IMG/VR virus record: IMGVR_UViG_3300024331_000152
Span: 1-64,000 of that record
DNA: 64,000 nt
Source of the DNA: a virus
Lineage: Duplodnaviria > Caudoviricetes
Strand: one strand, 5' to 3'
Below are positions 40,884 through 56,596 of the stretch, piece after piece. The notes under the pieces are model-generated. The model was not told where the DNA came from and made no database searches. It was given only the letters and a program-made list of their open reading frames with translations. Position numbers and translations under genes: made by a program. Position 1 is the stretch's first letter. Every line of letters begins with the position of its first letter.

Positions 40884-40912
40884 TTGACACTCTGCCGGAA
40901 TCATGGAATGAT
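40884..40912 (+). promoter_or_regulatory. Sigma70-type promoter of tRNA array A
   Basis: TTGACA-17 nt-(TG)nAATGAT; predicted start site at the GTG/ATG (40920/40923) of the leader ORF. Confidence 0.7.
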
Positions 40913-40922
40913 TCATTCCGTG

Positions 40923-40994
40923 ATGAAGTTCTTAGCTCTCAGTTCGCTCTCTCTGTATTGCCTGTCATCGGCAGGCATGGGGGCGTCTATGTAA
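40923..40994 (+). CDS. Attenuator leader peptide A (MKFLALSSLSLYCLSSAGMGASM)
   Basis: 12 of codons 4-16 are Leu/Ser/Tyr/Cys, the amino acids of the downstream tRNAs. Confidence 0.85.
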   Translation: MKFLALSSLSLYCLSSAGMGASM

Positions 40995-41022
40995 GCGCGA
41001 GCTTCAGTAGACTTGGCAACTG

Positions 41023-41048
41023 CCCCCGGCTAACCGCTGGGGGTTTTT
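41023..41048 (+). terminator. Intrinsic terminator (attenuator A)
   Basis: CCCCCGGC-TAACC-GCTGGGGG-TTTTT; 5' arm can instead pair with GGGGGC at 40979-40984. Confidence 0.85.
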
Positions 41049-41052
41049 ATTT

Positions 41053-41129
41053 GCGCGCGTACGCCAACGGAAGAGCGAATCGCCTTAAAAGCGATTGGTT
41101 GATGGGTTCGAATCCCTCGGCGCGCACCA
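41053..41129 (+). tRNA. tRNA-Leu(TAA), short variable arm
   Basis: AATCGC-CTTAAAA-GCGATT, TTCGAAT, ACCA. Confidence 0.8.
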
Positions 41130-41131
41130 AT

Positions 41132-41207
41132 GTACCGGAAGGTAAAGGCTGGAACCAGCGGTCCGCAAAACCGCTTTTAGCGAGTTGAACTCTCGCCCGG
41201 TACTCCA
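41132..41207 (+). tRNA. tRNA-Cys(GCA)
   Basis: GCGGT-CCGCAAA-ACCGC, acceptor GTACCGG/CCGGTAC, U73-CCA. Confidence 0.75.
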
Positions 41208-41217
41208 ATTTTGAAGT

Positions 41218-41294
41218 GCTCCGGTAGCCCAAAGGCAGGAGGCGCACGGTTCAGGTTCGTGACAGTGTGGGTTCGAATCCCACCCGGAGTACCA
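41218..41294 (+). tRNA. tRNA-Leu(CAG)
   Basis: Cloverleaf, loop TTCAGGT, CCA. Confidence 0.85.
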
Positions 41295-41297
41295 AGT

Positions 41298-41376
41298 GCA
41301 CGAGTAGCCCAACTAGGTAGGAGGCACACGCTTGAGGGGCGTGGCAGTATGGGTTCGAATCCCATCTCGTGTACCA
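41298..41376 (+). tRNA. tRNA-Leu(GAG)
   Basis: CACGC-TTGAGGG-GCGTG, CCA. Confidence 0.9.
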
Positions 41377-41387
41377 AATTTAAATGT

Positions 41388-41466
41388 GCCTGCGTAGCCC
41401 AATTAGGTAGGAGGCGTCTGGCTTAGAACCAGAACAGTATGGGTTCGAATCCCTTCGCAGGTACCA
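41388..41466 (+). tRNA. tRNA-Leu(TAG)
   Basis: TCTGG-CTTAGAA-CCAGA, CCA. Confidence 0.9.
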
Positions 41467-41467
41467 T

Positions 41468-41546
41468 GCCCTCGTAGCCCAACTAGGCAGGAGGCACTTC
41501 ATTCAAAACGAAGTCAGTGTCGGTTCGAATCCGACCGAGGGCACCA
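41468..41546 (+). tRNA. tRNA-Leu(CAA)
   Basis: Loop TTCAAAA, acceptor GCCCTCG/CGAGGGC, CCA. Confidence 0.9.
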
Positions 41547-41555
41547 AGTTTTAAC

Positions 41556-41648
41556 GGAGCGTTGGCTGAGTCTGGTTTAAGGCACCTCACTGCTAACGAG
41601 GCGTGACTGTAAAAGGCACCGTGCGTTCGAATCGCACACGCTCCGCCA
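41556..41648 (+). tRNA. tRNA-Ser(GCT)
   Basis: Loop CTGCTAA, long variable arm, G73-CCA. Confidence 0.9.
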
Positions 41649-41655
41649 TTTGAAC

Positions 41656-41743
41656 GGATGAGTGAGCGGAATGGTATCGCCCTGCGTTGGAAGCGCAGCT
41701 CACGTGAAAGCGTGTGCAGGTTCGAGTCCTGTCTCATCCGCCA
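41656..41743 (+). tRNA. tRNA-Ser(GGA)
   Basis: CTGCG-TTGGAAG-CGCAG, long variable arm, GCCA. Confidence 0.9.
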
Positions 41744-41744
41744 T

Positions 41745-41832
41745 GGAAGCACTGGGCATGTGGAGAGCCCACCCGCCTCGAAAGCGGACGTACCGCAAGG
41801 TACTGAGTGTTCGACTCACTCTGCTTCCGCCA
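41745..41832 (+). tRNA. tRNA-Ser(CGA)
   Basis: Loop CTCGAAA, long variable arm, GCCA. Confidence 0.85.
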
Positions 41833-41836
41833 GTTT

Positions 41837-41924
41837 GGGTGTGTGGGCGAGCGCTTTAAGCCTCTGGCCTTGAAAGCCAGCGTACCGAAAGGTACCGTGG
41901 GTTGGAATCCCACCGCACCCGCCA
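41837..41924 (+). tRNA. tRNA-Ser(TGA)
   Basis: CTGGC-CTTGAAA-GCCAG, long variable arm, GCCA. Confidence 0.9.
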
Positions 41925-41930
41925 TGTTGT

Positions 41931-42019
41931 GCAGGCGTCGTGTCTACTGGAAGACCAAGCGGGCTGTAAACTCGCTGCTCCTTCGAGCTATGGGGGTTCG
42001 ATTCCCTCCGCCTGCACCA
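41931..42019 (+). tRNA. tRNA-Tyr(GTA)
   Basis: Loop CTGTAAA, variable arm, ACCA. Confidence 0.85.
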
Positions 42020-42020
42020 T

Positions 42021-42440
42021 TTACTTCACGTCTGAGTTGTACCAGCGGATCAGTTTCTTGAACAGGCTAAGCCTGAGAACGAGCAGGCAGTCGGCGCGTT
42101 GTTTCCATGGTCTCAGAACCACGGTGTAAGGCATCTTTCTGTAGACTGTTTTTCCGCCTTTTATTGAGCCGCAATGCCCAACAACTTCGACTGTCCACGT
42201 GCCTAGCCTAGCGCCCGAAGACTGTTTTGGATCTAGCGTGGATACGTCAAACGAATCGACGAACGTCACCGCTTTCCGAAAATCTTTGATCGGTATTGTG
42301 ATGTCGGCACGAGAGAGACCGGTAGACACCATAAATCCGATATTAGTTCCGCTGAACCATATTCTCGCCTCAAGCTCTGGCACTTCGAAGACGGCCACGT
42401 TTACATCCCAATTACCTTCATTTAAATCGCGAGGTTTCAT
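42021..42440 (-). CDS. Hypothetical protein (leaderless start)
   Basis: TATACT-6 nt-ATG on the minus strand. Confidence 0.55.
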   Translation of the reverse strand: MKPRDLNEGNWDVNVAVFEVPELEARIWFSGTNIGFMVSTGLSRADITIPIKDFRKAVTFVDSFDVSTLDPKQSSGARLGTWTVEVVGHCGSIKGGKTVYRKMPYTVVLRPWKQRADCLLVLRLSLFKKLIRWYNSDVK

Positions 42441-42467
42441 GACGAGAGTATATGCTAAACTGCGCGC

Positions 42468-42731
42468 ATGCCGATCCAGCGCAAGCATGCTGTGTTCTAC
42501 ATCCCTCACACCGGGCTCTACTATACCGGAGCTGGGGAGTTCCTCGACGGCAAAGGCGAAAAAATCAAGTGGGATCGTTCGATCACGGTCTACAATACTC
42601 ATGCCAGAGCCGAGCGAGCCAGAAATAGAATCCTGCAACATAATCCGTTACAGTACGCTCGCGGCGAACTGGTGGTGATCAACGTCGAGATCATCGAAAA
42701 AGAGGATGAGGTAGGAGATGGCTTTCGATAA
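42468..42731 (+). CDS. Hypothetical protein (leaderless start)
   Basis: TGcTAAACT-GCGCGC-ATG. Confidence 0.6.
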   Translation: MPIQRKHAVFYIPHTGLYYTGAGEFLDGKGEKIKWDRSITVYNTHARAERARNRILQHNPLQYARGELVVINVEIIEKEDEVGDGFR

Positions 42732-42933
42732 CGGCTGGCCGAAGCATGTAGTGAATGGCGTCAGATATTCTGTCCATAACGAAGGTGAGTTCAACGGCAC
42801 GACGACGTGGATGGTAAAGCGCTACAACAACCCGAACGATGACGGCAATTACGTTGAGTGTCTGTTCTCTAGCGTCACGAAGGATGAGCTGATAGCGATC
42901 CAGCAGGCGATCAATACCGGATCGTGGGGATGA
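42718..42933 (+). CDS. Hypothetical protein
   Basis: SD GAGGTAGGAG. Confidence 0.55.
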   Translation: MAFDNGWPKHVVNGVRYSVHNEGEFNGTTTWMVKRYNNPNDDGNYVECLFSSVTKDELIAIQQAINTGSWG

Positions 42934-43139
42934 CCGCAGAAGAACTGCGGGACTTTAGAACCCGCGCACTTGTGATGCAGGAGCAGCAATATCTCGCGCT
43001 GGCATTTGAGGCGGCAAAGGCGGGGCATTTGCGGCTTTGCGATGAACTCTATCGCTGGGCTGCTGACCGTCATCAGAATCTACAACTTTATCTCGGATTG
43101 GTTCCCGACCAAACAGAAGCGCCTGCGCATCGGCAATAG
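42930..43139 (+). CDS. Hypothetical protein
   Basis: ATGA overlap with previous gene; also overlaps the AAA 3' end on the opposite strand. Confidence 0.4.
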   Translation: MTAEELRDFRTRALVMQEQQYLALAFEAAKAGHLRLCDELYRWAADRHQNLQLYLGLVPDQTEAPAHRQ

Positions 43140-44310
43140 TCGCCTTTTCGGGAAGCTGGCTGCGAAAATCGTCGTAATTCGAAATAGAGAAAACTTCTTT
43201 TGCTCGCTGGTGAAACCGGCGCAACTCTTCCTCGCGCGCCCAAGTAATATGAAACTCGCGGTCGATTCTTCCCTTGCGCACAAGAGCTGAATCGAGTCTC
43301 TCGCGATGATTCGTAGTGATAATCAGCAATCGTCCCTCGGTTGCAACTACGCCGTCGATCACATTCAGCAGATCCGAAGCGACGATTCCTTTGGTTACCT
43401 CGTCGCCGTCTTTGTCGAATTTGCGCTCCCGGGCGGCAGGCACGCAGTCCACATCCTCGATGAGCAGGATCGACCGATTACAAACGGTATTGATGAGCCT
43501 CTGTAGATCTTCAGAACGTTCAACGCCAGCGACGTTGAGGTAATAAAGTGGAAGCTCTAAATGCGTGGCAAGCGCTTGCACTAAGGATGATTTTCCTGTT
43601 CCCGGAGGACCATAGAAGCAGAAGCCGCGCCGCCATGGGATACCGAGCATTCGGTACTTGTCTTTGATCGACAAAAATTGCTCAATGTCGGTGACAATGG
43701 ATTCTATTTCACCGGCAGGCAGATAGATCGTATCGAGAGAGCGCGGCGACAACTCGCGGCTATCCCACCAGCTCCCTTCGTTGCGGTAGATGAAGAGTTT
43801 CTTTTCGAGTTGGGCATAGAACTCGGCCCGGGCCTCGTCAAGTAAATCAGTGATGATTTGGCGATCCAGCGTTCCCCAGATCGACACTTGGATCGTGCGG
43901 CGCGGACGGAATAGAGACGTCGCACCTTCAGCTATCGCCCCCGGCGTTCCCGGGGCAGAGGCTTCCTTATCGGATGTAAAAATTAGGAGATACCGCTGCT
44001 TGAAGCGCAGATAATAGGTTCCGTAGCGCGGGATCGTTTGATAGTCCATGCCGTCGATGGTGCGCTTGCGCCGGAGCATGAGATCTGTGATGCGCTTCTC
44101 GCGAATACGCTTTTCGGCCCATAGAGCAATCCACATGTAGGCTTCTTCGGTCTCATGCTCTTCGACCGCAACGGCGACATGCAGCTTTCGGAGGAAGTAG
44201 CCAATCGAATAGTTGTAGACGAGAGACCAGAAGTTTCGGAGCCAGCCCAGAGCTACTCCGCCCACCACGAGCAGCCATGGCGAGTCTTTCATCAGTTTTT
44301 GCCAATCCAT
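42955..44310 (-). CDS. BCS1-like membrane AAA+ ATPase
   Basis: N-terminal TM, R.LDTIYL, Y..LGIPWRRG..FYGPPGTGKSS, LLIEDVD, LLNVIDG, TTNH.E.LD.ALVR.GRID. Confidence 0.9.
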   Translation of the reverse strand: MDWQKLMKDSPWLLVVGGVALGWLRNFWSLVYNYSIGYFLRKLHVAVAVEEHETEEAYMWIALWAEKRIREKRITDLMLRRKRTIDGMDYQTIPRYGTYYLRFKQRYLLIFTSDKEASAPGTPGAIAEGATSLFRPRRTIQVSIWGTLDRQIITDLLDEARAEFYAQLEKKLFIYRNEGSWWDSRELSPRSLDTIYLPAGEIESIVTDIEQFLSIKDKYRMLGIPWRRGFCFYGPPGTGKSSLVQALATHLELPLYYLNVAGVERSEDLQRLINTVCNRSILLIEDVDCVPAARERKFDKDGDEVTKGIVASDLLNVIDGVVATEGRLLIITTNHRERLDSALVRKGRIDREFHITWAREEELRRFHQRAKEVFSISNYDDFRSQLPEKATIADAQALLFGREPIRDKVVDSDDGQQPSDRVHRKAANAPPLPPQMPARDIAAPASQVRGF

Positions 44311-44895: not shown

Positions 44896-44970
44896 CGCGG
44901 TCGAGTGGATGGGTCCCACGATGCCCTCATAAGGCATAGATTGCAGGTTCGAACCCTGTGACCGCAACCA
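44896..44970 (+). tRNA. tRNA-fMet-like (CAT)
   Basis: C1:A72 mismatch, ATGCC-CTCATAA-GGCAT, ACCA. Confidence 0.75.
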
Positions 44971-44980
44971 ATTGACTGGA

Positions 44981-45208
44981 ATCCTCGGGGCAGCGTTGAA
45001 GCGTTACTAGTACGTGGAGCTTGGTAGAGATTCGCCTTGCAGTATCGTCCCCGATAGGGCAAGGATGTGAGGCCGTCACAACTGGAGAGAGAACCGCCGA
45101 TCTCTGACAACGGCTCAGCGGTGACGCTCAGGAGAGACTGAGGATCTTCAAGGAGGACCCGGCATGACGCTTGATTACCGAGATTGCGAATCGCGAGAGT
45201 CGGTCCTC
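44981..45208 (+). ncRNA. Candidate structured ncRNA between tRNAs
   Basis: ATCCTCGG/CTGAGGAT closing helix, CCTTGC/GCAAGG, TGTGA/TCACA, AGCG-GTGA-CGCT, GAGGACC/GGTCCTC; no ORF. Confidence 0.5.
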
Positions 45209-45216
45209 GAATCTTT

Positions 45217-45291
45217 GGCTGTGTAGCTCAACCAGAGCACCCGTCTTCAAAACGGTAGGTTGCAGGTATACAACCCCTGTCACAGCCACCA
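45217..45291 (+). tRNA. tRNA-like with UCA (opal) anticodon, atypical D/T loops
   Basis: CCGT-CTTCAAA-ACGG, acceptor GGCTGTG/CACAGCC, ACCA; T-loop TATACAACC non-canonical. Confidence 0.6.
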
Positions 45292-45314
45292 ATTCTCTCG
45301 ACAAAATTTCAAAC

Positions 45315-45390
45315 GGGGTAGTAGCATAGCGGCTAATGCACTTGATTGTCGATCAAGCCATCGCGGGTTCGAGTCCCGTCTGCCCCGCCA
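45315..45390 (+). tRNA. tRNA-Asp(GTC)
   Basis: CTTGA-TTGTCGA-TCAAG, GCCA. Confidence 0.9.
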
Positions 45391-45408
45391 TAATTTTCAG
45401 GAGATTCT

Positions 45409-45621
45409 GTGAGCAAGTGGAGCCCAGTAGGTGAAAACGAAACCGGCTTCACTGAAGGTGGAGACCACGGAGAATTCAACTGTGGAAACTGTGTTCACAT
45501 GAAGGATGGCTGCACGCATCCGATCATGAAGGCGATCTCGCAGCGGCCTCGCAAAAAGAACGGAAACGTTGAGGTAGACGAAGATGACTGCTGCACGTTC
45601 GTACGCAGACCGGGAGACTAG
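45409..45621 (+). CDS. Small Cys-rich (Fe-S/HiPIP-like) protein
   Basis: SD AGGAG, C..C.H....C...CC. Confidence 0.5.
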   Translation: MSKWSPVGENETGFTEGGDHGEFNCGNCVHMKDGCTHPIMKAISQRPRKKNGNVEVDEDDCCTFVRRPGD

Positions 45622-46140
45622 ATGATCTGTCCTGATTGCGACAAAGCGGAGATGGTCGAGACTGAAGTGACGCGCGACTTTAAAGTCGGTCGCAAGGAAC
45701 CTGTCACGTTGTCGGCTACGGCGGTAGTTGAGATCTGCCCAGCGTGTAAGTGTGAACTGCACGGCTGGCAGATGGAGAGAGCGAAGTCGCTCGCGATGTC
45801 TAAATGGATGAAGGAAAACCACAGGGTTGACATTAACCCGCCAGAAGATTTGCGGATCGCTCACGCGGCGTCATCGTTTCACCTCAAACAGCTTGAGCAT
45901 GAAGGTAAGGCAGCATGTTTCTATTGCCTACGTTTCTTCAACATCGAGGAGATTGAGGACTGGATCGACAATGAGCAGACGGCGCTCTGTCCGAAGTGTG
46001 GTATTGACTCCGTGATTCCAGAGACGGACAATGTAACACCAGAGTTCCTAAAGCGCATGCAGCAATATTGGTTTGATGCAGGCGCAGACCTTGCAAAGAA
46101 AGATTGTCAGGAGCCTGCTCCTGCAATGCCGGGAACGTAA
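45622..46140 (+). CDS. Double zinc-ribbon protein
   Basis: MqsA-like CPDC..CPAC N-terminus fused to CFYCL..F...EI..WID...TALCPKCGIDSVI domain. Confidence 0.7.
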   Translation: MICPDCDKAEMVETEVTRDFKVGRKEPVTLSATAVVEICPACKCELHGWQMERAKSLAMSKWMKENHRVDINPPEDLRIAHAASSFHLKQLEHEGKAACFYCLRFFNIEEIEDWIDNEQTALCPKCGIDSVIPETDNVTPEFLKRMQQYWFDAGADLAKKDCQEPAPAMPGT

Positions 46141-46199
46141 TGATGGATAGCGTTCAGGACTGACCTTGCCATCCAACTAACCTTTGGAGATAAAACCCA

Positions 46200-46365
46200 A
46201 TGGAAGTCAAACGGAAAGAAATTGAAACGCTGATCGAAAAGTCAGCTAAAAGCACACGATTCTGGAGACGCTATGCGTTTTTCTCAGGCGGCATGTAATT
46301 GTGCAAATGCCATACGCTGCTTGCTCGACGCAGAACTCGAACAAGCTTGTTCCGGCCCGAAGTAG
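46200..46365 (+). pseudogene. Small phage gene with apparent frameshift at GCTAAAAGC
   Basis: MEVKRKEIETLIEKSAK continues as AHDSGDAMRFSQAACNCANA.. only if one A is skipped. Confidence 0.5.
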
Positions 46366-46368
46366 ACC

Positions 46369-46708
46369 GGTGGTTGCACCCCGCCTCGCCGCGAGGCTAA
46401 GTCGCGGCAGAGATTTAAGCATGTAGAAGGCAACTAATCAGATTTCGGACGTGGGTTCGAATCCCACCGAGTCCACCAATCAGCTAACGCGCCGGGGCGA
46501 AACGCCTTGGTTCAACGAAAGTTCAGCTAAGAGTTAAAGCTGGTCCGTTGGCTGATTTGTGGGCTCGCCAAGGTTTCGACGGGATCAGAAGACGTTGTGC
46601 AGTTCATGCCGAGTGCTGTGGCCTGCGTTAAGGGACACGGAAAAAACAAATGCAGATGCTTCGGCACTGCCGATGGCAGCCTAAAAACTGACGTCTGAGG
46701 GTGGCCGC
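46369..46708 (+). ncRNA. ssrA: Circularly permuted (two-piece) tmRNA
   Basis: T-arm plus CGAGTCC-ACCA ends 46478; hairpin-closed spacer; GGGCTCG..TTCGAC starts 46561 (G3:U70); tag ORF 46652-46684 ADASALPMAA-stop. Confidence 0.9.
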
Positions 46709-46745
46709 AATACTCATCAAAGAACCATGCGGCACAAATACGCTA

Positions 46746-47150
46746 ATGCCTTACAAAGACAAAATTAAGCGTGCAGAGTATTGGAGGAATTATGTAATTG
46801 CCAACCCTCACGTCAAAACCAGAACTAAGACCGACAGGAAGCGCGAGAACGGCGAGGGCTGGGAGATTAAGAACCGCATCCCCTTCAAGATCTCGTGCTG
46901 CGATTGTGGTCTCGTCCATAATCTGGTTATCGTAGCTCCGAATACGAGAAAGGGCGCAGTCCTTGGCATCGCTGCGGAACGAAACGAGCGCGCAACCGGA
47001 CAGAAGCGCAGACATTTAGTGACGAACAAGCCAGAGACGCCTGAGGAGGCGGCGCGCAGACTAGGCGTGTCGAAGAAACGTCTCGAATCAATTCGCGAAA
47101 TTATGTCGCGCCCTGTGTTACGCTCAAAGCGAAAACACTTGAATCCCTAA
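46746..47150 (+). CDS. Hypothetical protein (CCDCGLVH motif)
   Basis: MPYKD start, ISCCDCGLVH. Confidence 0.6.
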   Translation: MPYKDKIKRAEYWRNYVIANPHVKTRTKTDRKRENGEGWEIKNRIPFKISCCDCGLVHNLVIVAPNTRKGAVLGIAAERNERATGQKRRHLVTNKPETPEEAARRLGVSKKRLESIREIMSRPVLRSKRKHLNP

Positions 47151-47187
47151 GGCGTTCAGACCGCGAATCTGAGCGTCTCTTTTTTTC

Positions 47188-47216
47188 TTGACAACAGGCG
47201 CAGAGTTTCGTACCTT
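47188..47216 (+). promoter_or_regulatory. Sigma70 promoter, leaderless transcript
   Basis: TTGACA-17 nt-TACCTT, 6 nt before ATG at 47223. Confidence 0.75.
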
Positions 47217-47222
47217 CTGTTC

Positions 47223-47711
47223 ATGCATTGAATCGCCAACACGCATTCATACGTTTTCGTCCGGTACGATCTCTCCCTCGCACAATCTGTAATCCAGTCG
47301 AGCCATGCTACCCATTCGATGGCTAATGGGCTCTCCCAGAGCCCTGAAGTTCCGCATATCGTTCTGATCGGCGTTCCAGACGTCAAGGCCCTTGAACGGG
47401 TCATTCAAAAACTCCGCGACAATCACATTGAATTTGCTGCCTTCGATGAGCCTGACGATAATCTCGGCTTGACGGCGGTCGCTACTGTTCCTCTCAACGA
47501 AGAGCAGAGACTTGTGTTCCAGAACTACAAGATCTGGACTGAAGAAGAATACTTTTACACGCGCGTAGCTCAGTGGTCAGAGCACTCCGGGAGGTTGACG
47601 GAGAGGTCGGCTGTTCGAATCGGTCCGCGCGTACCATGGGCGGTTCATTCGGTGATGTATCCGGTTCGAATCCGGTATCGCCCACCATGCGCGGTTAGCT
47701 CGACTATGTAG
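47223..47711 (+). CDS. Pth2-like peptidyl-tRNA hydrolase with in-frame UGA at codon 3
   Basis: ATG CAT TGA, then in frame YVFVRYDLSLAQSVIQSSHA...IVLIGV....L.......F.EPD...GLTAVA. Confidence 0.75.
47559..47636 (+). tRNA. tRNA-like element with 9-nt anticodon loop (GGAGGTTGA)
   Basis: Canonical D and T arms, ACGCGCG/CGCGCGT-ACCA; no readable anticodon. Confidence 0.7.
47638..47687 (+). ncRNA. Mini tRNA-like element (acceptor plus T arm only)
   Basis: GGGCGGT/ATCGCCC-ACCA, CCGG-TTCGAAT-CCGG. Confidence 0.65.
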
Positions 47712-47737
47712 AGGGGAAGATCCTCGCCCGCGCTCCA
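47689..47737 (+). ncRNA. Mini tRNA-like element
   Basis: GCGCGG/CCGCGC-TCCA, GAGG-GGAAGAT-CCTC. Confidence 0.5.
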
Positions 47738-47743
47738 ATTCGA

Positions 47744-47819
47744 GCGCTCGTGGCTCAGCGGCAGAGCGCCGGTCTTCAAAACCGGGTCAGCGTGGGTTCG
47801 AACCTCACCGAGCGCTCCA
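47744..47819 (+). tRNA. Opal suppressor tRNA (UCA), Gly-like acceptor identity
   Basis: CCGGT-CTTCAAA-ACCGG, canonical cloverleaf, G1:C72 C2:G71 G3:C70 U73. Confidence 0.85.
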
Positions 47820-49402: not shown

Positions 49403-50266
49403 ATGATGTATATCAAGCATTTCGTCCTCGCCGTGCGCGTCAACGGTAAAATCCTCAAAGAACATGACCAAGTTGTCCACCTCCCTTTCGGAGCTGAGTA
49501 TGAGCTGTTGCTCAAGAACCTCAACTCGCGCCGCGCGATGGTCGGTGTCTCCATTGACGGCAAGCGTACCAGTGATTGTCGTTTCGTAATTCCAGCTAAC
49601 TCGGAGAGCGTTCTTGAGCGCTACGTCAAAAACGGCAACATGGACTCCGGGAACCGCTTCAAGTTCATCGAACGCACCTCGGCAGTTGAAGAACATCGCG
49701 GAGTGGGATCGGACGACGGTATCGTGCGCGCCGAGTTTTGGGCAGAGCGAGAAGTTGTCACGCTTCCTCGCACAATCATCAATGATTCATGGCTTCCTTC
49801 ATCTCCGTATGATCGCAGGCGTCGCACGCTTGGAAATTCTGGAGGCTTTAGAAGTTTCAGCGGCATCACAGGACAAAGTGTTCCATCTGATGATGTGTCG
49901 TGCATGTACGGTAGTGTTCAAGGTGGAGCTGAGGCCCCGGGATCGAGCTTTAACGTAGGCTCGCTCAATGCGCAGGTGACATACACGTCATCGTTGGGCG
50001 CGGACATGTCGAAGATCGCAGATAACGACGCGGGCATCACCGTCCCGGGCAGCGAGTCGTCGCAGCGCTTCCACTGGACAAACGGCTTCGAGCTGGAGAG
50101 CACAAGCACCGTAATCATACTTCAGCTTCGTGGCGAGATCGGCGGACAGGCTGTTGCTGCGCCGGTCACGGTGGAGTATAAGCCTGTCTGCATCACCTGT
50201 GGCAAGACCAACAAGGGTACCAGCCGTTTCTGTGACCAGTGCGGAACGGCATTGCAAATTCTTTAA
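49403..50266 (+). CDS. Conserved phage protein with C-terminal double zinc ribbon
   Basis: SD AAGGAG; LPFG.EY.LLLKNL..RRA...SIDG; C..CG.......FC.QCG. Confidence 0.75.
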   Translation: MMYIKHFVLAVRVNGKILKEHDQVVHLPFGAEYELLLKNLNSRRAMVGVSIDGKRTSDCRFVIPANSESVLERYVKNGNMDSGNRFKFIERTSAVEEHRGVGSDDGIVRAEFWAEREVVTLPRTIINDSWLPSSPYDRRRRTLGNSGGFRSFSGITGQSVPSDDVSCMYGSVQGGAEAPGSSFNVGSLNAQVTYTSSLGADMSKIADNDAGITVPGSESSQRFHWTNGFELESTSTVIILQLRGEIGGQAVAAPVTVEYKPVCITCGKTNKGTSRFCDQCGTALQIL

Positions 50267-50274: not shown

Positions 50275-50304
50275 TTGCAATTTGCGCGCATCATAGGTTA
50301 AGGT
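50275..50304 (+). promoter_or_regulatory. Promoter of tRNA array B
   Basis: TTGCAA-18 nt-TAAGGT; shares CTTGCAATTTGCGCGCATC with the array C promoter. Confidence 0.7.
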
Positions 50305-50314
50305 AGGAAGCGTT

Positions 50315-50401
50315 ATGAAACTCAACCGAGCCAATTCGAACCATTCGTTTAATCCAGCGGCACAACCGCAGGGTACAACGCGTGTGCGTGGCTCGGCCTG
50401 A
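50315..50401 (+). CDS. Attenuator leader peptide B (MKLNRANSNHSFNPAAQPQGTTRVRGSA)
   Basis: Codons 13-23 (AAT CCA GCG GCA CAA CCG CAG GGT ACA ACG CGT) are all read by downstream tRNAs. Confidence 0.85.
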   Translation: MKLNRANSNHSFNPAAQPQGTTRVRGSA

Positions 50402-50433: not shown

Positions 50434-50467
50434 ACCCCCGAGCCTAGATAATAGACTCGGGGGTTTT
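50434..50467 (+). terminator. Intrinsic terminator (attenuator B)
   Basis: ACCCCCGAG...CTCGGGGGT-TTT; CCGAGCC can instead pair with GGCTCGG at 50390-50396. Confidence 0.85.
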
Positions 50468-50999
50468 GATTGGCATGGGAAAGTGGCTGCATCGTGTTTC
50501 GAATATCGATTTTGATTCTCTCACTGGTGATTGCTCTACTTGTGGGCGCGTGAGATTGAAAGTAAAGAAAGGCGGCAGGAGATTTGCATGCGCTGTATCT
50601 GAGCAACGCTGGTGCGATGGACAAAGCGTATCAAAGAGAAGGGCTGCTCGCCGTAGACAAACTAGAAAGTTGCTCGCAAAGCTTCTATCTAGTGGATGTC
50701 GGATATGTCGAGTAGCCAAGAAAGGAATTCATTGTCATCATCTCGATAGTTCCACAAAGAGTTTCAATATTTCGCAAGGGTATACAGACTGTTCCAGAGA
50801 GCTGTTAATTGCCGAGCTGAAAAAATGTATTGCCGTGTGTCAGCAATGCCATACAAAGATTCACTTCAGGCAGTTTGTAGTATCTGAGGATTTGATTTCT
50901 GAGTGGAATAGAGATGTAGATGTTTTATTCACGCGTAGCTCAATGGTAGAGCCCTGCACTGTTAATGCAGTCATTGGGGGTTCGATTCCCTCCGCGTGA
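50466..50999 (+). CDS. HNH endonuclease (reads into tRNA-Asn)
   Basis: C..C...HCHH.D...K.F.IS...ELKKC...CQQCH. Confidence 0.75.
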   Translation: MIGMGKWLHRVSNIDFDSLTGDCSTCGRVRLKVKKGGRRFACAVSEQRWCDGQSVSKRRAARRRQTRKLLAKLLSSGCRICRVAKKGIHCHHLDSSTKSFNISQGYTDCSRELLIAELKKCIAVCQQCHTKIHFRQFVVSEDLISEWNRDVDVLFTRSSMVEPCTVNAVIGGSIPSA

Positions 51000-51003
51000 G
51001 CCA
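50929..51003 (+). tRNA. tRNA-Asn(GTT)
   Basis: CTGCA-CTGTTAA-TGCAG, GCCA. Confidence 0.9.
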
Positions 51004-51010
51004 AATTAGT

Positions 51011-51084
51011 TGCGTCTTCGTTCAGTGGCAGGACGGTTGACTCTGAATCAACACACGGGAGTTCGATTCTCTCAGACGCAGCCA
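51011..51084 (+). tRNA. tRNA-Gln(CTG)
   Basis: GTTGA-CTCTGAA-TCAAC, GCCA. Confidence 0.9.
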
Positions 51085-51092
51085 AATTTTGT

Positions 51093-51168
51093 TGGGAGAT
51101 GGCCGAGCGGCGTAGGCACGAGCCTTTGGATCTCGTACAGGCTGGTTCAACTCCAGCTCTCCCAGCCA
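51093..51168 (+). tRNA. tRNA-Gln(TTG)
   Basis: Loop CTTTGGA, TGGGAGA/TCTCCCA-GCCA. Confidence 0.85.
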
Positions 51169-51169
51169 T

Positions 51170-51245
51170 GCGGATGTAGTTCAATTGGCAGAACGTTGGA
51201 GTGCCACTCCAAAGGTTGCCGGATCGTTGCCGGTCATCCGCTCCA
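51170..51245 (+). tRNA. tRNA-Gly(GCC)
   Basis: TTGGA-GTGCCAC-TCCAA, TCCA. Confidence 0.85.
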
Positions 51246-51282
51246 GTTTGAGGTGAGAGGAATGCATTGAATTGATGATGAC

Positions 51283-51358
51283 GCTGCCGTAGCTCAAGTG
51301 GTAGAGCACCTGTCTCGTAAACAGGAGGTTGGGACTTCGAGTGTCCCCGGTAGCTCCA
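51283..51358 (+). tRNA. tRNA-Thr(CGT)
   Basis: CCTGT-CTCGTAA-ACAGG. Confidence 0.9.
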
Positions 51359-51378
51359 GTTTTCCCTGAGGTGATCTT

Positions 51379-51915
51379 ATGATCCGTAGAACAGTTTTGA
51401 TGCTGAACGCGAGCTACGAACCGCTGCGGATCATCAGCGCAAAGAAGTCCCTGACACTCTTAACCAAGGGTGTTGCCGTGGTGGAGGTACCAACCAAGAT
51501 CCAAGTCCACGCGGGGATCTACTTGCCGAGTGTTATTCGGTTGCGTCATTTCCGCAACGTGCCGCACAAGAGGCCAGTGCCGTCGAGAAAGAACATCTTC
51601 ACCAGAGACGGTTTTCGCTGCTTGTATTGCGGTGCCAAGGCTCCGAAAGTAGTGCTCGAACTTGAGCACATCGTTCCGAGATCGAGAGGCGGAGCAAACG
51701 CTTGGGACAACCTTTGTGCATCTTGTCACGATTGCAACCAGAAGAAGCGTGACAGGACTCCGGAGGAAGCAGGCATGAAGTTGATTCACAGACCTCTGCC
51801 CGCGACCGTACACACCGGCAGGTTCGTCTTGAAGACGATGGGTAACGAAATTGCAGAGTGGGGTCCGTTTCTATGGAAGGACTCTAAGGGCGAACAGAAG
51901 TTGCAGTTCGCATAA
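51379..51915 (+). CDS. HNH endonuclease (McrA-like)
   Basis: [24 protein letters not shown]...[11 protein letters not shown]...[19 protein letters not shown]. Confidence 0.9.
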
Positions 51916-51975
51916 CAAGAAATAGCGCCGGGTTATGGATTGACAATTAAGCTCCGTGTGAAATAAAACGGTCTA

Positions 51976-52368
51976 ATGCCATACAGTGACCCGGCGAAAC
52001 AAAAAGAAGCTCTTCGGCGATGGTATCGCAGAGTTGTTCGTAAAAGACGCACAGATTGGTTTAAAGGAAAGCAATGTGCGACTTGTGGAAGTACGCGAAG
52101 ACTTGAATTGGATCATGTTGATCCAGCGCTGAAGGTGGATCATAAAATTTGGTCATGGAGCGAGAAAAGACGCACTGAAGAGCTTAATAAATGTGTTCCA
52201 CGGTGTAGAACTTGTCACATCGAGAGATCGGCAGAGCAACAACGAAAGCCATTGGTTCACGGAACGCGCGATGGATATATGTGGCATCGTTGTCGCTGTA
52301 GGGAATGCGTTAAAGCTGCGTCGCTCTACCGTAATGAGCAGCGACGTTTGAAGGGACGAAAGAATTAA
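51976..52368 (+). CDS. HNH endonuclease
   Basis: C..CGS...LELDHVDP..K...ELNKC..RC..CH, HGT..GY...CRC..C. Confidence 0.85.
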   Translation: MPYSDPAKQKEALRRWYRRVVRKRRTDWFKGKQCATCGSTRRLELDHVDPALKVDHKIWSWSEKRRTEELNKCVPRCRTCHIERSAEQQRKPLVHGTRDGYMWHRCRCRECVKAASLYRNEQRRLKGRKN

Positions 52369-52369
52369 A

Positions 52370-52444
52370 GCACTCGAAGCATAGTCGGAGATGCCCTCGG
52401 CTTGTATCCGAGAGAACAGAGTTCGAATCTCTGCGAGTGCTCCA
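52370..52444 (+). tRNA. tRNA-Thr(TGT)
   Basis: CTCGG-CTTGTAT-CCGAG. Confidence 0.85.
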
Positions 52445-52510
52445 AAGATGTCGGATGTGGCCCCGAGTTCGAGGAGGAATAGGCGAGAGCTTATCGGGGC
52501 TCAGGTTTAT

Positions 52511-52586
52511 GGAGCTATTGGCCGAGCGGTTTAGGCGCGGGACTGTGACCCCCGACACGAGTGTTCAACTCACTCATAGCTCCCCA
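52511..52586 (+). tRNA. tRNA-His(GTG)
   Basis: Loop CTGTGAC, G-1:C73. Confidence 0.85.
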
Positions 52587-52590
52587 ATTT

Positions 52591-52665
52591 GGGGCTGTAG
52601 TGCTAATGGGAACACACTGGTTTTGCACTCCAGAGTTGAGAGTTCGATTCTCTCCAGCTCCACCA
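52591..52665 (+). tRNA. tRNA-Ala(TGC)
   Basis: G3:U70, loop TTTGCAC. Confidence 0.9.
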
Positions 52666-52714
52666 AATTTACGCAGGCGCTGAGCCCTCTCTGTTCTATA
52701 CGTGACACGCTCAG

Positions 52715-52863
52715 GGAAGAAGATCAAAGGTGTCGCGTATATGCTCGCTTTTGGTTACAACCTTGAAAGAATTAAGGCAGAAATCGCAAAATGCGTCGTA
52801 CGCTGCGCGAACTGTCACCGCCGCCGAACGGCGAAGGTTTTAGGAAATTGGAAGTTGCACCAT
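52715..52863 (+). pseudogene. C-terminal remnant of an HNH endonuclease
   Basis: GKKIKGVAYM...IKAEIAKCVVRCANCHRRRT with no N-terminus or start. Confidence 0.65.
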
Positions 52864-52940
52864 CAGGGCGTAGCCTAGCGGCTTCAGGCACTCGCTTCGG
52901 GAGCGAGATGACGTGAGTTCGAATCTCACCGCCCCGACCA
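52864..52940 (+). tRNA. tRNA-Pro(CGG)
   Basis: CTCGC-TTCGGGA-GCGAG. Confidence 0.9.
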
Positions 52941-52986
52941 TTTTAACGAGCCGGTTTTCATTAAAGAAATCGGCTGAAAATTTTAA

Positions 52987-53064
52987 CCGGGTTTAGCCTA
53001 GTCTGGCTCAGGCACCTGCTTTGGGAGCAGGACGACGGGGGTTCAAATCCCTCAGCCCGGACCA
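52987..53064 (+). tRNA. tRNA-Pro(TGG)
   Basis: CCTGC-TTTGGGA-GCAGG. Confidence 0.9.
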
Positions 53065-53065
53065 T

Positions 53066-53154
53066 GCACCCGTAGCCTAGCGGATTCAGGTAACGGTCTA
53101 CGAAACCGTCGAGGGAAACCTCTTACGCAGGTTCGATTCCTGCCGGGTGCTCCA
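53066..53154 (+). tRNA. tRNA-Arg(ACG) with long variable arm
   Basis: ACGGT-CTACGAA-ACCGT, extra GAGG-GAAA-CCTC arm. Confidence 0.85.
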
Positions 53155-53168: not shown

Positions 53169-53223
53169 CGGCGCGGTGAGGCTGGGCGTGGCACGGTGAG
53201 GTTTGGTTCGGTATGGTTTGGCA
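53169..53223 (+). repeat. 5-nt periodic (NGGNN)x11 tract
   Basis: cggcg cggtg aggct gggcg tggca cggtg aggtt tggtt cggta tggtt tggca. Confidence 0.8.
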
Positions 53224-53250
53224 TTCTTGCCATGAGGAGGGTTATGCGAA

Positions 53251-53655: not shown

Positions 53656-53696
53656 CGTTAGGTTAGGCTCCGAAGCGTCCGGTCCACGGGATCAAG

Positions 53697-53808
53697 TTTC
53701 CGCTGACAGTGTTGCTTACATGGCAGGGTAACCTGCATTTCACTACGAATGAAAAACCGGGGCAACCCGGGTGTACCCGAAAGGGTTGCAGCACGACACC
53801 AGCGGAGA
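53697..53808 (+). ncRNA. Candidate structured RNA (multi-way junction, three GNRA loops)
   Basis: TTTCCGCTG/CAGCGGAGA, GTGTTGC/GCAGCAC, GCAGG-GTAA-CCTGC, CCGGG-GCAA-CCCGG, ACCC-GAAA-GGGT. Confidence 0.65.
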
Positions 53809-53831
53809 AAGTTTGGGTTGACTTGTTTGCA

Positions 53832-53903
53832 TACATGGTAGCTCATTTGGTAGAGCATTCGCCTCTTAAGCGAAGGGTAGTCGGTTCAATTCCGAGTCGC
53901 AGA
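53832..53903 (+). pseudogene. tRNA-Lys(CTT)-like element without paired acceptor stem
   Basis: Intact D arm, TTCGC-CTCTTAA-GCGAA, TCGG-TTCAATT-CCGA; flanks do not pair, no CCA. Confidence 0.6.
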
Positions 53904-54118
53904 ACGTCTCTGTACCTGAGTACGTTGATGACAATCTTCGCGCCATCAAGCGTGAGATCGAGAGCCGTCAGGCTGACCGTCGTGCGGCTCGTGTACGCGA
54001 GTTGAAGTCGCAGCGCGCCGGTCTTGCAACCGCTCAGGAGAAGCGGGAGGCCATCGAGAAGGAGCTTGCCTCACTCGGCGAGCCTGTCTAGCCATCGTCC
54101 AGAAACTGGAAAGGCCCG

Positions 54119-54340
54119 CTATGTGCGGGCCTTCTTTTTGTTTGCCTGCTCCAGCTTCTTGCGGGCACGTTCCTTGCTGATAGCGAGGTTCAGTGCGCTG
54201 GTGTACGAGAGGCAGTAGATAGCACGCGTGCCCTTGGCGCGCAGTTCCATCCAGTCAGCCTTGAACTCGACTACGATGGAGCGGGTCTTACCCCGCTCCC
54301 ATACGCAGTTCTCAGTCTCGACGACATCTTGAGGGGGCAC
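54119..54340 (-). CDS. Hypothetical protein
   Basis: R.IVVE......LR.KGTR..Y.L pattern. Confidence 0.55.
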   Translation of the reverse strand: MPPQDVVETENCVWERGKTRSIVVEFKADWMELRAKGTRAIYCLSYTSALNLAISKERARKKLEQANKKKART

Positions 54341-54468
54341 ACGCGGTACTCAACCGAACCCATCACAAACGTACAGCAAGCGCTTGAGAGATACGGCATC
54401 AAGAACGTGCACGCGGGTCATCTGGAGAAGCTTGCCGAGGTATTTGGGATTGCGGCGAAAAAAGAAGC

Positions 54469-54498
54469 TTGCAATTTGCGCGCATCCTGAGTTAAGCT
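54469..54498 (+). promoter_or_regulatory. Promoter of tRNA array C
   Basis: TTGCAA-18 nt-TAAGCT; 19-bp identity with the array B promoter. Confidence 0.7.
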
Positions 54499-54508
54499 CT
54501 ATTTCGTT

Positions 54509-54577
54509 ATGCAGAGAACTATAGCCATGTCGATCACCAAAGGGACCAAGAGGGTCATTTGGGGAGGCGTGTCTTAG
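54509..54577 (+). CDS. Attenuator leader peptide C (MQRTIAMSITKGTKRVIWGGVS)
   Basis: Contains AGA, AGG, ATA, ATC/ATT, ATG, AAA, AAG, ACC/ACT, GGA/GGG, TGG, GTG, matching downstream anticodons. Confidence 0.85.
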   Translation: MQRTIAMSITKGTKRVIWGGVS

Positions 54578-54603
54578 GGGTCTGCACGAGTAGGTTTCAT
54601 CAG

Positions 54604-54628
54604 ACCCCGACTCAGGTCGGGGTTTTTT
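54604..54628 (+). terminator. Intrinsic terminator (attenuator C)
   Basis: ACCCCGAC-TCAG-GTCGGGGT-TTTTT; CAGACCCC can instead pair with GGGGTCTG at 54577-54584. Confidence 0.9.
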
Positions 54629-54646
54629 GTTGTTTGACAAGTTTAT

Positions 54647-54716
54647 AGGGGATGATCTGGGATCGACGAGGTCTCCAAAACCTCACAGCGGAGTTCAATT
54701 CTCCGATCCCCTGCCA
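54647..54716 (+). tRNA. tRNA-Trp(CCA), minimal D arm
   Basis: GAGGT-CTCCAAA-ACCTC, GCCA. Confidence 0.8.
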
Positions 54717-54719
54717 TTT

Positions 54720-54796
54720 GCCAGCGAAGCAGAAGTGGATATTGCGCGCGTCTCATAAGCGCGTTGTAGTGGGTTCGAGTCCCACCGTTGGCACCA
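54720..54796 (+). tRNA. tRNA-Met/Ile2(CAT)
   Basis: CGCGT-CTCATAA-GCGCG, ACCA. Confidence 0.85.
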
Positions 54797-54798
54797 AG

Positions 54799-54854
54799 TT
54801 CACAGCGGTGTTCGCCTTACTCTGACGGCGCAATACCGTCCCGCTGTGAATCCA
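54799..54854 (+). ncRNA. Mini tRNA-like element
   Basis: TTCACAGCGG/CCGCTGTGAA-TCCA with 5-bp/7-nt arm GACGG-CGCAATA-CCGTC. Confidence 0.5.
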
Positions 54855-54864
54855 GTTTCTGGAC

Positions 54865-54944
54865 GCACGTGTAGCTGCTAGTCGGTATGTAGCAGTCCCC
54901 TTATAAGGGACCGGTTGTGGGTTCGACACCCGCCACGTGCACCA
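54865..54944 (+). tRNA. tRNA-Ile(TAT)
   Basis: GTCCC-CTTATAA-GGGAC, ACCA. Confidence 0.85.
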
Positions 54945-54995
54945 AAATTAGCATCAAACCTGTTACGTCACCGGGAGACTGACAGGAGGAGAGCT

Positions 54996-55202
54996 ATGCT
55001 CATTACCCTGTTTTGGATCATTGCAGTTCTCGTTGTGGCTGGTCTTCTGTTGTACCTGATCAACACGATCCCGGGAATCGATCCAACGATCCACGCACTG
55101 ATCAGGGCTGTTGTGATCATCGTCTGCGTGGTCTTTGTGCTGTACTTTGTGTTCTCGTTGTTTAGCGGAGTGGCAATTCCAAGTCCGCACTTTACGAGGT
55201 AG
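54996..55202 (+). CDS. Small 2-TM membrane protein
   Basis: SD AGGAGG; L.YLIN.IP.ID......IR.VVII. Confidence 0.75.
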   Translation: MLITLFWIIAVLVVAGLLLYLINTIPGIDPTIHALIRAVVIIVCVVFVLYFVFSLFSGVAIPSPHFTR

Positions 55203-55207
55203 TTTTT

Positions 55208-55282
55208 GGGCTGTAAGCTTTGTCGGCGAAGCAATCGACTCTTAATCGATAGAGCAGGGTTCGATTCCCTGACGGCCCACCA
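55208..55282 (+). tRNA. tRNA-Lys(CTT)
   Basis: ATCGA-CTCTTAA-TCGAT. Confidence 0.9.
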
Positions 55283-55340
55283 AATTTTGCGAAGGAGAAG
55301 TGAGATGCGAAAACAGAAAGATGACCCAGATAAACGAATT

Positions 55341-55416
55341 GGGGTCGTCGCATAGAGGCAACTGCAACGGACTTTTAATCCGAATGACGTGAGTTCGAAT
55401 CTCACCGGCCCCACCA
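55341..55416 (+). tRNA. tRNA-Lys(TTT)
   Basis: CGGA-CTTTTAA-TCCG. Confidence 0.9.
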
Positions 55417-55425
55417 TAGTTTTTT

Positions 55426-55502
55426 GCTGGCGTAACTCAGACGGACAGAGTGCCTGTCTTCTAAACAGGAAGCCGCTGGTTCGACTCCAGCCGTCAGCAC
55501 CA
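55426..55502 (+). tRNA. tRNA-Arg(TCT)
   Basis: CCTGT-CTTCTAA-ACAGG. Confidence 0.9.
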
Positions 55503-55503
55503 T

Positions 55504-55579
55504 GGCCCCTTAGCTCAGTCGGAAGAGCGGATCGGTCCTAACGATAAGGTCGGGAGTTCGAATCTCTCAGGGGTCACCA
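55504..55579 (+). tRNA. tRNA-Arg(CCT)
   Basis: ATCG-GTCCTAA-CGAT. Confidence 0.85.
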
Positions 55580-55585
55580 AGTTTT

Positions 55586-55662
55586 GCTGCCGTATCGGCC
55601 TCGCCTCCGAAGCGAGATCCCGTAGGTGGATAAGGCTGGTTCGAATCCAGTCGGCAGCTCCA
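55586..55662 (+). tRNA. D-armless tRNA-Arg(CCG)-like element
   Basis: GCTGCCG/CGGCAGC-TCCA, CTCGC-CTCCGAA-GCGAG, canonical T arm, no D stem. Confidence 0.7.
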
Positions 55663-55667
55663 GTTTT

Positions 55668-55742
55668 GCGGATGTAGATCAACGGTAGATCGGGTGTCTT
55701 ACAAGCACTTCGTCGTGGGTTCAACTCCTACCATCCGCACCA
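55668..55742 (+). tRNA. tRNA-Val(TAC)
   Basis: GGTGT-CTTACAA-GCACT, ACCA. Confidence 0.85.
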
Positions 55743-56220
55743 ACTTGTCGTGATCGAGTTCCCAATGGTGATTACGGCACAAGCCGACAAGATTATTAGG
55801 GCGATTAACGATTCCTAATGTCGTAGATTCGGCGAACTCACAAACGGGAGTGAGATGACAACAATCAACGTAGAGGTTGTAGCCGCAGATGGCGCATTTC
55901 TTCAAGAGTCCCGCTCTTAAAGCAACGCTCCTTGCATGAGATCGCACTACAGTATCGTAGGCGTTTCGAGATCCGGACTTTTTAAGATCTGCTAGGGTGA
56001 CAGATTCAAAATCTCGGCGACGGCAATCGCGACAACTTTTAACCCGATAGCGGTCTAGTATTTTGCCGCATTTTGGGCATGAATATATCTTTCGCGCATA
56101 CCCTTTCCAAGGGGTTCTAATTCTTTCTTTATTGTTGTAGATGGCCGCACATGACGAATTACAAAAACGTGGATTATTTGTTGGAACGTCGCAGTTGGCG
56201 CAGGTACGACGAAAGTTCAT
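55699..56220 (-). CDS. HNH endonuclease (antisense insertion in array C)
   Basis: FCNSSCAA..NN, CAICGY...VDCCH......N...NLV.LC.NHHWE.D; leaderless TACCAT-6 nt-ATG. Confidence 0.85.
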   Translation of the reverse strand: MNFRRTCANCDVPTNNPRFCNSSCAAIYNNKERIRTPWKGYARKIYSCPKCGKILDRYRVKSCRDCRRRDFESVTLADLKKSGSRNAYDTVVRSHARSVALRAGLLKKCAICGYNLYVDCCHLTPVCEFAESTTLGIVNRPNNLVGLCRNHHWELDHDKLVRMVGVEPTTKCL

Positions 56221-56347
56221 AGAAAGATGGTACCGGAGCTGTAGACAACGGCACCACCTTTTTAAAGAAGTAGCACAGGTTATCGTGCGAAAGAGTCATT
56301 CCTTATTCTGGACAAGACAAGGACTGGCTGTATGTTCAAAATTGAAC

Positions 56348-56424
56348 GCTGCCGTAGCTCAGTTGGCCAGAGCACACCCTTGGTAAGGGTGAGGTCGTCA
56401 GTTCGAAACTGACCGGTAGCTCCA
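56348..56424 (+). tRNA. tRNA-Thr(GGT)
   Basis: CACCC-TTGGTAA-GGGTG. Confidence 0.95.
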
Positions 56425-56430
56425 TATTGT

Positions 56431-56506
56431 TGGCGGATAGCTCAGGTGGTCAGAGCACGCGACCGATAATCGCGAGGCCGGAGTTCAACTCTCCGTCCGC
56501 CAACCA
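56431..56506 (+). tRNA. tRNA-Ile(GAT)
   Basis: CGCGA-CCGATAA-TCGCG. Confidence 0.85.
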
Positions 56507-56512
56507 AAGTTA

Positions 56513-56596
56513 GCGGGGGTCGCTCAGTGGTAGAGCCGCTGCCTTCCAAGCAGCCGACCTTGTGTCATGCGGGTTCGAATCCCGTCCCCCGCTCCA
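56513..56596 (+). tRNA. tRNA-Gly(TCC) with extended variable arm
   Basis: GCTGC-CTTCCAA-GCAGC, TCCA. Confidence 0.9.

Follow-up and report, generated by a model that had tools for sequence, protein, structure and literature searches.

The window analysed here is the first 64 kilobases (kb) of a 142.8-kb phage contig (IMG/VR record IMGVR_UViG_3300024331_000152, positions 1 to 64,000), with a GC content of 0.53. ARAGORN finds 35 transfer RNAs (tRNAs) in it, and a permuted, two-piece transfer-messenger RNA (tmRNA). Our subject is three arrays of tRNA genes, termed A, B and C, which ARAGORN and Rfam place exactly where a preliminary description, made from the sequence alone, had put them. Each array belongs to a cassette (at ~40884, 50275 and 54469) in which a sigma-70-like promoter is followed by a short open reading frame (ORF), a strong intrinsic terminator and, finally, the tRNA genes. 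We argue that the ORFs are the leader peptides of probable transcription attenuators. Cassette features are given below by window position, and all of them lie on the plus strand.

Promoter A (40884-40912) consists of TTGACA, a 17-nucleotide (nt) spacer and AATGAT, with TG upstream. Ten nucleotides separate its -10 hexamer from the ATG of leader ORF A (40923-40994), which has 23 codons and a stop, is rich in Leu, Ser, Tyr and Cys codons, and has a GTG in frame at 40920. Within the ORF lies region 2 (40974-40986), the putative antiterminator strand. Intrinsic terminator A (41022-41052), a GC-rich stem of 9 base pairs (bp) with a T-tract, is 1 nt from the first tRNA, a tRNA-Leu. Array A (41053-42019) comprises five Leu, four Ser, one Tyr and one non-canonical Cys tRNA (41132-41207).

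Promoter B (50275-50304; TTGCAA, 18-nt spacer, TAAGGT) precedes leader ORF B (50315-50401), of 28 codons and a stop. Region 2 of this leader (50389-50401) lies over the stop codon. It is predicted to pair with region 1 (50326-50332) when the RNA is untranslated, or else with the 5' arm of intrinsic terminator B (50434-50468). An HNH endonuclease ORF (50466-50999, plus strand) sits between this terminator and tRNA-Asn, and runs into the latter. In L001, one of the relatives introduced below, there is no HNH ORF at this place and terminator B directly adjoins tRNA-Asn, so we regard the ORF as an insertion. Array B (50929-53154) carries Asn, two Gln, Gly-GCC, two Thr, His, Ala, two Pro and Arg-ACG tRNAs, and has a second HNH gene (51379-51915) inside it. 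HNH homing endonuclease genes lie in or beside arrays in this way, and relative L085 has an intein-containing version (11695-13344).

Promoter C (54469-54498; TTGCAA, 18-nt spacer, TAAGCT) begins with the same 18 nt as promoter B, and these are found nowhere else in the genome; ORFs B and C are unrelated. Leader ORF C (54509-54577), of 22 codons and a stop, contains ATA, AGA, AGG, AAA, AAG, TGG, GGA and GGG. Region 2 of C (54570-54585) extends across the stop codon, and its predicted partner is the terminator 5' arm or, in naked RNA, the 5' end of the ORF. Intrinsic terminator C (54602-54632) has a 10-bp stem and a T-tract. Array C (54647-56596) comprises a non-canonical Trp tRNA (54647-54712), Met, Ile-TAT, two Lys, Arg-TCT, Arg-CCT, a D-armless CCG element (55586-55662), Val, Thr-GGT, Ile-GAT and Gly-TCC.

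The ORFs, described earlier as 22-28 codons long, have 23, 28 and 22 codons. A narrower delimitation of the terminators gives 41022-41044, 50434-50464 and 54602-54625. The order of promoter, ORF, terminator and tRNAs, claimed for all three cassettes, holds in A and C; in B it is broken by the HNH ORF that separates the terminator from the tRNAs. The arrays have no space for promoters of their own, since terminator A lies 1 nt from its first tRNA and terminator B of L001 abuts tRNA-Asn. The totals of 11, 11 and 12 tRNAs are likewise reached, but only by including three non-canonical elements that are seen at relaxed thresholds or by folding only. The Cys-GCA element (41132-41207) has C33 and a U73 discriminator, and the Trp-CCA element (54647-54712) a short D arm. 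The element at 55586-55662 has no D arm; its anticodon loop carries CCG, its variable arm is long, and it ends in CCA. It is kept in relative L084 (~7590-7665). In relative L086, the matching place in the array is taken by a canonical Arg-CCG tRNA.

Each leader is composed largely of codons that are read by the array behind it. Sampling was scored under standard wobble rules. Leader A samples 10 of the 11 tRNAs in its own array, leader B all 11 and leader C 11 of 12, and of the tRNAs in the other arrays they sample 2-4 of 11. The earlier counts for B and C were the same; that for A was 9/11, which is also what we obtain if Leu-UAG is not credited with CUG. Counted by codon, 13/22 in leader A, 18/27 in B and 15/21 in C are read by the array that the leader precedes. 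Random ORFs generated from genome codon usage match this sampling at P 1e-3 to <1e-5 per leader, so that the expected excess over chance is borne out. Because an ORF can be picked freely, we also scored all 1,748 short ORFs from the whole genome (18-35 codons, all ATG and GTG starts, six frames) against each array. Every leader ranked first of the 1,748 for its downstream array.

Most of this signal is one of amino-acid composition. The preliminary description held that the match extends to isoacceptors, and this is true in part. Thr codons divide as claimed, ACA and ACG occurring in leader B and ACC and ACT in leader C, and so do Arg codons, with CGT and CGA in B and AGA and AGG in C. The corresponding division of Gly codons (GGT and GGC in B, GGA and GGG in C) is not exact: GGC is also present in leader C, and both GGC and GGG in leader A. 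When codons were redrawn synonymously, with the peptide kept, A and B showed a modest isoacceptor excess and C the clearest one (P 0.005-0.05).

The geometry of the switch was analysed in 15 leaders, those of the window together with those of its relatives. In 14 of the 15, a strong GC hairpin with a T-tract lies 15-41 nt past the stop codon. In all 14 of these terminator-bearing leaders, a segment located at -20 to +13 of the stop codon is predicted to pair with the terminator 5' arm, at -13.5 to -23.9 kcal/mol. This segment, region 2, would lie beneath a ribosome positioned on the stop codon. The complementarity between ORF 3' end and terminator 5' arm noted earlier is accordingly predicted in all three window leaders (A, -17.3 kcal/mol; B, -15.5 kcal/mol; and C also). 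The pairing usually beats that of dinucleotide shuffles. The Fisher-combined P is 8.5e-10, which is optimistic because the 14 sequences are related; for the three window leaders alone it is 0.027. Terminator sequences vary among relatives and the antiterminator partner varies in step, and compensatory pair changes occur in the terminator stems. When naked, the window leaders fold with region 1 paired to region 2 and the terminator formed (1:2 + 3:4), the 5' part of the ORF holding region 2 (z-scores -3.9, -6.1 and -3.8). The 1:2 anti-antiterminator is predicted in all three window leaders. Together, the pairings reproduce the classical 1:2, 2:3, 3:4 arrangement and support the earlier assignment to the trp/his type of attenuation.

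The codons themselves are distributed in keeping with such a switch. At ORF positions from which a stall would free region 2, 169 of 233 codons are read by the array, compared with 59 of 110 elsewhere (Fisher P 5e-4). Codons without a match are found chiefly at positions 2-3 and in the region-2 tail of the ORF. The -10 hexamer of most leaders ends 6-10 nt ahead of the start codon, and for this reason the transcripts are probably leaderless, or nearly so.

Relatives of this phage were recovered only through a marker protein, the zinc-ribbon protein (49403-50266) encoded directly upstream of leader B in this phage group, which has >2,000 metagenomic homologues. Other routes yielded none. With array A as the blastn query, only tRNA-level matches were found in the reference phage collection, and with leader B none; tblastn with the tail-fibre-like protein also found no match, and no close relative, in that collection. 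Exact-motif and single-protein scans of viral contigs found no relatives. Six metagenomic phages (L001, L002, L003, L084, L085 and L086) have marker proteins 50-75% identical to that of the window, and the same three-array layout. Wherever the region is present, the homologous leaders, four of A, seven of B and four of C, keep their frame and have 22-29 codons. Loss of frame, named in advance as grounds for rejecting the idea, is seen in none of the six, and the codon sets of the leaders are preserved as well. Leaders of this group sample 9-13 of 11-14 tRNAs. In L003, leader A contains all six Leu codons and lies upstream of five Leu isoacceptors; in L084, leaders B and C sample 12/12 tRNAs each; and in L002, two Gln codons have swapped positions and both are retained.

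Codon-anticodon correspondence before a terminator would also be expected if triplets in the leader RNA bound the tRNAs directly, without a ribosome. T-box riboswitches work in this way: one tRNA is bound directly through one specifier codon. They resemble the present cassettes in sensing the state of tRNA, and in placing a terminator/antiterminator switch before translation-related genes. We consider a T-box-like device highly improbable here. Searches of the leaders with Rfam found no match to the T-box or any other leader family, at either the gathering or a permissive threshold, and neither a Stem I with a specifier loop nor the conserved T-box antiterminator sequence is present. The leaders keep their start codon, frame and stop codon, the last of which lies within the switch. 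Moreover, there is no structural precedent for up to 20 sequential 'specifiers'.

Differently organised phages provide the strongest independent test of the match between leader and array. In L031, a four-tRNA array (Thr, His, Ala and Pro) stands behind a 20-codon leader in which 12 of the 19 codons after the start specify those amino acids. One leader of L065 samples all five tRNAs of a Pro/Ala/Trp/Pro/Arg array. Another, of 28 codons, precedes an array of 20 tRNAs, samples 18 of them, and has no Leu, Ser, Tyr or Cys codons at all. The third leader of this phage (minus strand, ~10113-10265; 32 codons) is rich in Leu, Ser, Tyr and Cys codons, has a good promoter and lies upstream of exactly those tRNAs. 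L008, too, has an array of other composition with a correspondingly different leader. When eight leader-array pairs were permuted, 2 of the 40,320 pairings, the true one included, reached the score of the true pairing, and competing pairings can only be swaps between arrays of like type. The cassette does not extend to all phages with the marker protein. Low-GC distant relatives (L013, L015, L028 and L081) have scattered tRNAs, and no recognisable cassette of leader and terminator was found in them.

These comparisons bear on the simplest objection, namely that the ORFs are independent small-protein genes with promoters and terminators of their own, or not genes at all, and that the codon match is due to chance or is a by-product of composition. 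Leader A does superficially resemble a hydrophobic, signal-type peptide. The objection is strongly disfavoured, however, and we rate it as very improbable: each leader stands first among the short ORFs for its array, the match recurs in unrelated leaders before differently composed arrays, and the arrays lack promoter space.

Our preferred reading, to which we assign a probability of roughly three in four, is that each cassette acts as a leader-peptide attenuator, through which ribosomes control transcription of its tRNA array. If so, the phage probably makes a given block of tRNAs only when the codons of that block are read slowly. Every feature of this mechanism that could be tested in sequence is present, from the leader ORFs with their matching codons to the terminators, the predicted alternative pairings (2:3 and 1:2) and the conservation of these elements. 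From these, we infer start sites, leader translation, stalling, read-through and a physiological trigger, as follows. Transcription would begin at the leader start codon or no more than a few bases away, and a ribosome would translate the leader behind RNA polymerase. If the sampled codons are read fast, the ribosome would reach the stop codon and mask region 2, the terminator would form, and the array would stay silent. Should decoding be slow, owing to scarce, cleaved or uncharged tRNAs of the kinds that the array encodes, the ribosome would lag within the ORF. Region 2, now free, would pair with the terminator 5' arm, and polymerase would continue into the array. The newly made tRNAs would restore decoding speed and close the switch, a negative feedback. 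With no ribosome, region 1 would sequester region 2 and the terminator would form, so that the default state would be off.

Several observations weigh against this reading. No Shine-Dalgarno sequences are evident at the leaders, so that their translation would rely on inferred leaderless initiation, from GTG in some relatives. Equilibrium folding with a ribosome masked in mid-ORF still predicts the terminator, and no switch to the antiterminator. It follows that the switch must be kinetic, as in trp; we dropped this calculation as a test on those grounds and used the pairing between region 2 and the 5' arm instead. The codon evidence is also imperfect. For A and B, the signal beyond amino-acid composition is modest. 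Leader B of the window keeps a Phe codon, although its array is without the Phe tRNA that relatives have, and leader C lacks the CGG of its relatives and has AGG in its stead, despite the CCG element in its array. Pro-GGG tRNAs go unsampled in three relatives. At fine scale, the tracking of single tRNA gains and losses by the leaders appears weak. The prediction that leader codons would follow tRNA content in other phages is upheld across array types, and only weakly at the level of single tRNAs. Finally, the T-tract of window terminator B is short (four T), the terminator of leader B in L085 is weak, and no terminator stands between the third leader of L065 and its array.

The last two cases would suit short ORFs that are translated and codon-matched, but whose output is something other than intrinsic termination, such as Rho access, RNase processing or the stability of the precursor. 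The array in question in L065 is the one with Leu, Tyr, Ser and Cys tRNAs. Such an output is unlikely, given the strong GC hairpins and T-tracts of 14/15 leaders in the close group and the covarying partner segment at the stop codon.

The manner of sampling raises a different alternative. In the preliminary description, a stall at any single sampled codon would hypothetically open the switch, with tRNA cleavage by nucleases such as PrrC, VapC or PARIS as a conjectured trigger. Classical attenuators have tandem runs of the sensed codon; here, one or two codons represent each tRNA, and sensitivity to any one tRNA may be low as a result. The switch may integrate total transit time, or decoding speed, or answer only to severe tRNA loss, since each codon is present just once or twice. 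The attenuators could accordingly be real and yet sense amino-acid supply or general translation capacity (the charging of many tRNAs, or summed transit time) and not the loss of single tRNAs to nucleases, and so serve to time or throttle tRNA synthesis during infection. Individual tRNAs are sampled once or twice per leader and 15-20 different codons occupy the sensing window, which suits an integrator better than a single-codon trigger, and charging is what classical attenuators respond to. Against this, amino-acid starvation is not relieved by extra tRNA, so that the feedback would be futile, and the sorting of isoacceptors (AGA/AGG in C, CGA/CGT in B) points to tRNA species and not to amino acids. 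We regard this alternative as possible, though rather improbable.

Returning to attenuation driven by tRNA loss, we tentatively propose that the leaders keep the pool of tRNAs under modular surveillance. As a regulon of its own, every array would be switched on when its class of host tRNA is destroyed, whether by an anticodon-nuclease defence or by the phage's own host shut-off. The cassettes would then be an inducible counter-defence written in RNA and codon choice, and widespread in large, tRNA-rich phages. This we hold to be a serious candidate, although one short of probable.

The closest known counterparts are bacterial. The ilvGMEDA leader senses Ile, Leu and Val, and the thr leader Thr and Ile, by means of tandem codon runs, and both govern biosynthetic operons. 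The phage cassettes share with them a short leader ORF with codons for several amino acids, the 1:2, 2:3 and 3:4 pairings, an intrinsic terminator, and the conversion of a stall into read-through, which is known there and proposed here. Unlike those leaders, with their tandem codons for two or three amino acids and their enzyme targets, the phage leaders sample 9-12 tRNA species (18/20 in L065) once or twice each, and split them by isoacceptor. The target differs as well, being the tRNAs themselves, a product that would feed back directly on the sensor. The genes downstream of the leaders are tRNAs and inserted HNH genes, and lie outside the classical scope of amino-acid biosynthesis and synthetase genes. 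In Escherichia coli, a Phe-sensing attenuator with the leader pheM controls the synthetase genes pheST. It resembles the phage cassettes in that leader-peptide attenuation governs a translation component serving the sensed codon; it differs in sensing one amino acid, in controlling synthetase and not tRNA genes, and in being cellular. Ribosome-mediated attenuation reportedly operates in Alphaproteobacteria at trpL of Sinorhizobium meliloti, where a single amino acid is sensed for a biosynthetic operon. This is the same class of mechanism, in the host group suggested for this phage (see below); trpL differs from the phage cassettes in the one amino acid sensed and in its biosynthetic operon.

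Two things, then, would set the cassettes apart within a known class: that tRNAs are the regulated genes, and that about a dozen species are sampled at once. The preliminary description knew of no report of such control for phage tRNA arrays. Our full-text literature search likewise returned no report of leader-peptide control of tRNA genes, although, its coverage being incomplete, this is no more than absence of evidence. Phage tRNA genes are usually viewed as constitutive helpers in codon usage, or as substitutes for tRNAs lost to host defences, and to our knowledge next to nothing is known of their regulation. If the proposal is correct, trp/his attenuation, the oldest known RNA switch, would be extended to an RNA product and to a sensor of a dozen tRNAs with direct feedback. 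It would account for the sorting of tRNAs into fixed blocks in these phages, and would open bench tests linking tRNA-targeting defences to phage counter-measures. The cassette also provides a sequence signature with which metagenomes can be searched, and would be a compact, portable switch and a candidate reporter of tRNA depletion.

Other RNA elements lie around the cassettes. Between arrays A and B is a middle group of tRNAs and the tmRNA (44896-47819), in which no leader of the cassette type was found. The permuted, two-piece tmRNA (46386-46775) sits amid these tRNAs and is conserved in L001 and L003. Its presence suggests an alphaproteobacterial host, given the known distribution of permuted tmRNAs. 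Two genes of the middle group encode tRNAs with a UCA anticodon (45217-45288 and 47744-47819) that could read UGA stop codons; one is detected by Rfam only, and the other is called 'SeC' by ARAGORN. A UCA-anticodon tRNA occupies the same place in L001 and L003, and the stop codon of leader B is TGA.

A motif starting TTGACAAG is conserved between T-tract and first tRNA, at 54632-54646 in the window and after terminators B or C in L001, L002, L003 and L086. It is a poor fit to a promoter and could be a processing or pause signal. The TTGACA-containing motif after terminators B and C was considered as a second promoter and rejected: its -10 element would fall within the tRNA, where there is no match. 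Upstream of promoter C, at 53838-53898, is a partial tRNA that has a Lys-CTT anticodon arm but lacks an acceptor stem. In relatives, a Ro60/TROVE protein gene lies between arrays B and C (4755-6434 in L084), and the window has a weak, sub-threshold match to YrlA-like Y RNA inside array C (56369-56490). The marker protein has a recurrent neighbour of another kind. In L021, L024, L030, L032-L038 and many IMG/VR loci, a single tRNA with a CTA anticodon, of the amber-suppressor type and labelled 'Pyl' by ARAGORN, precedes the homologous zinc-ribbon gene at a distance of between a few hundred bases and ~3 kb.

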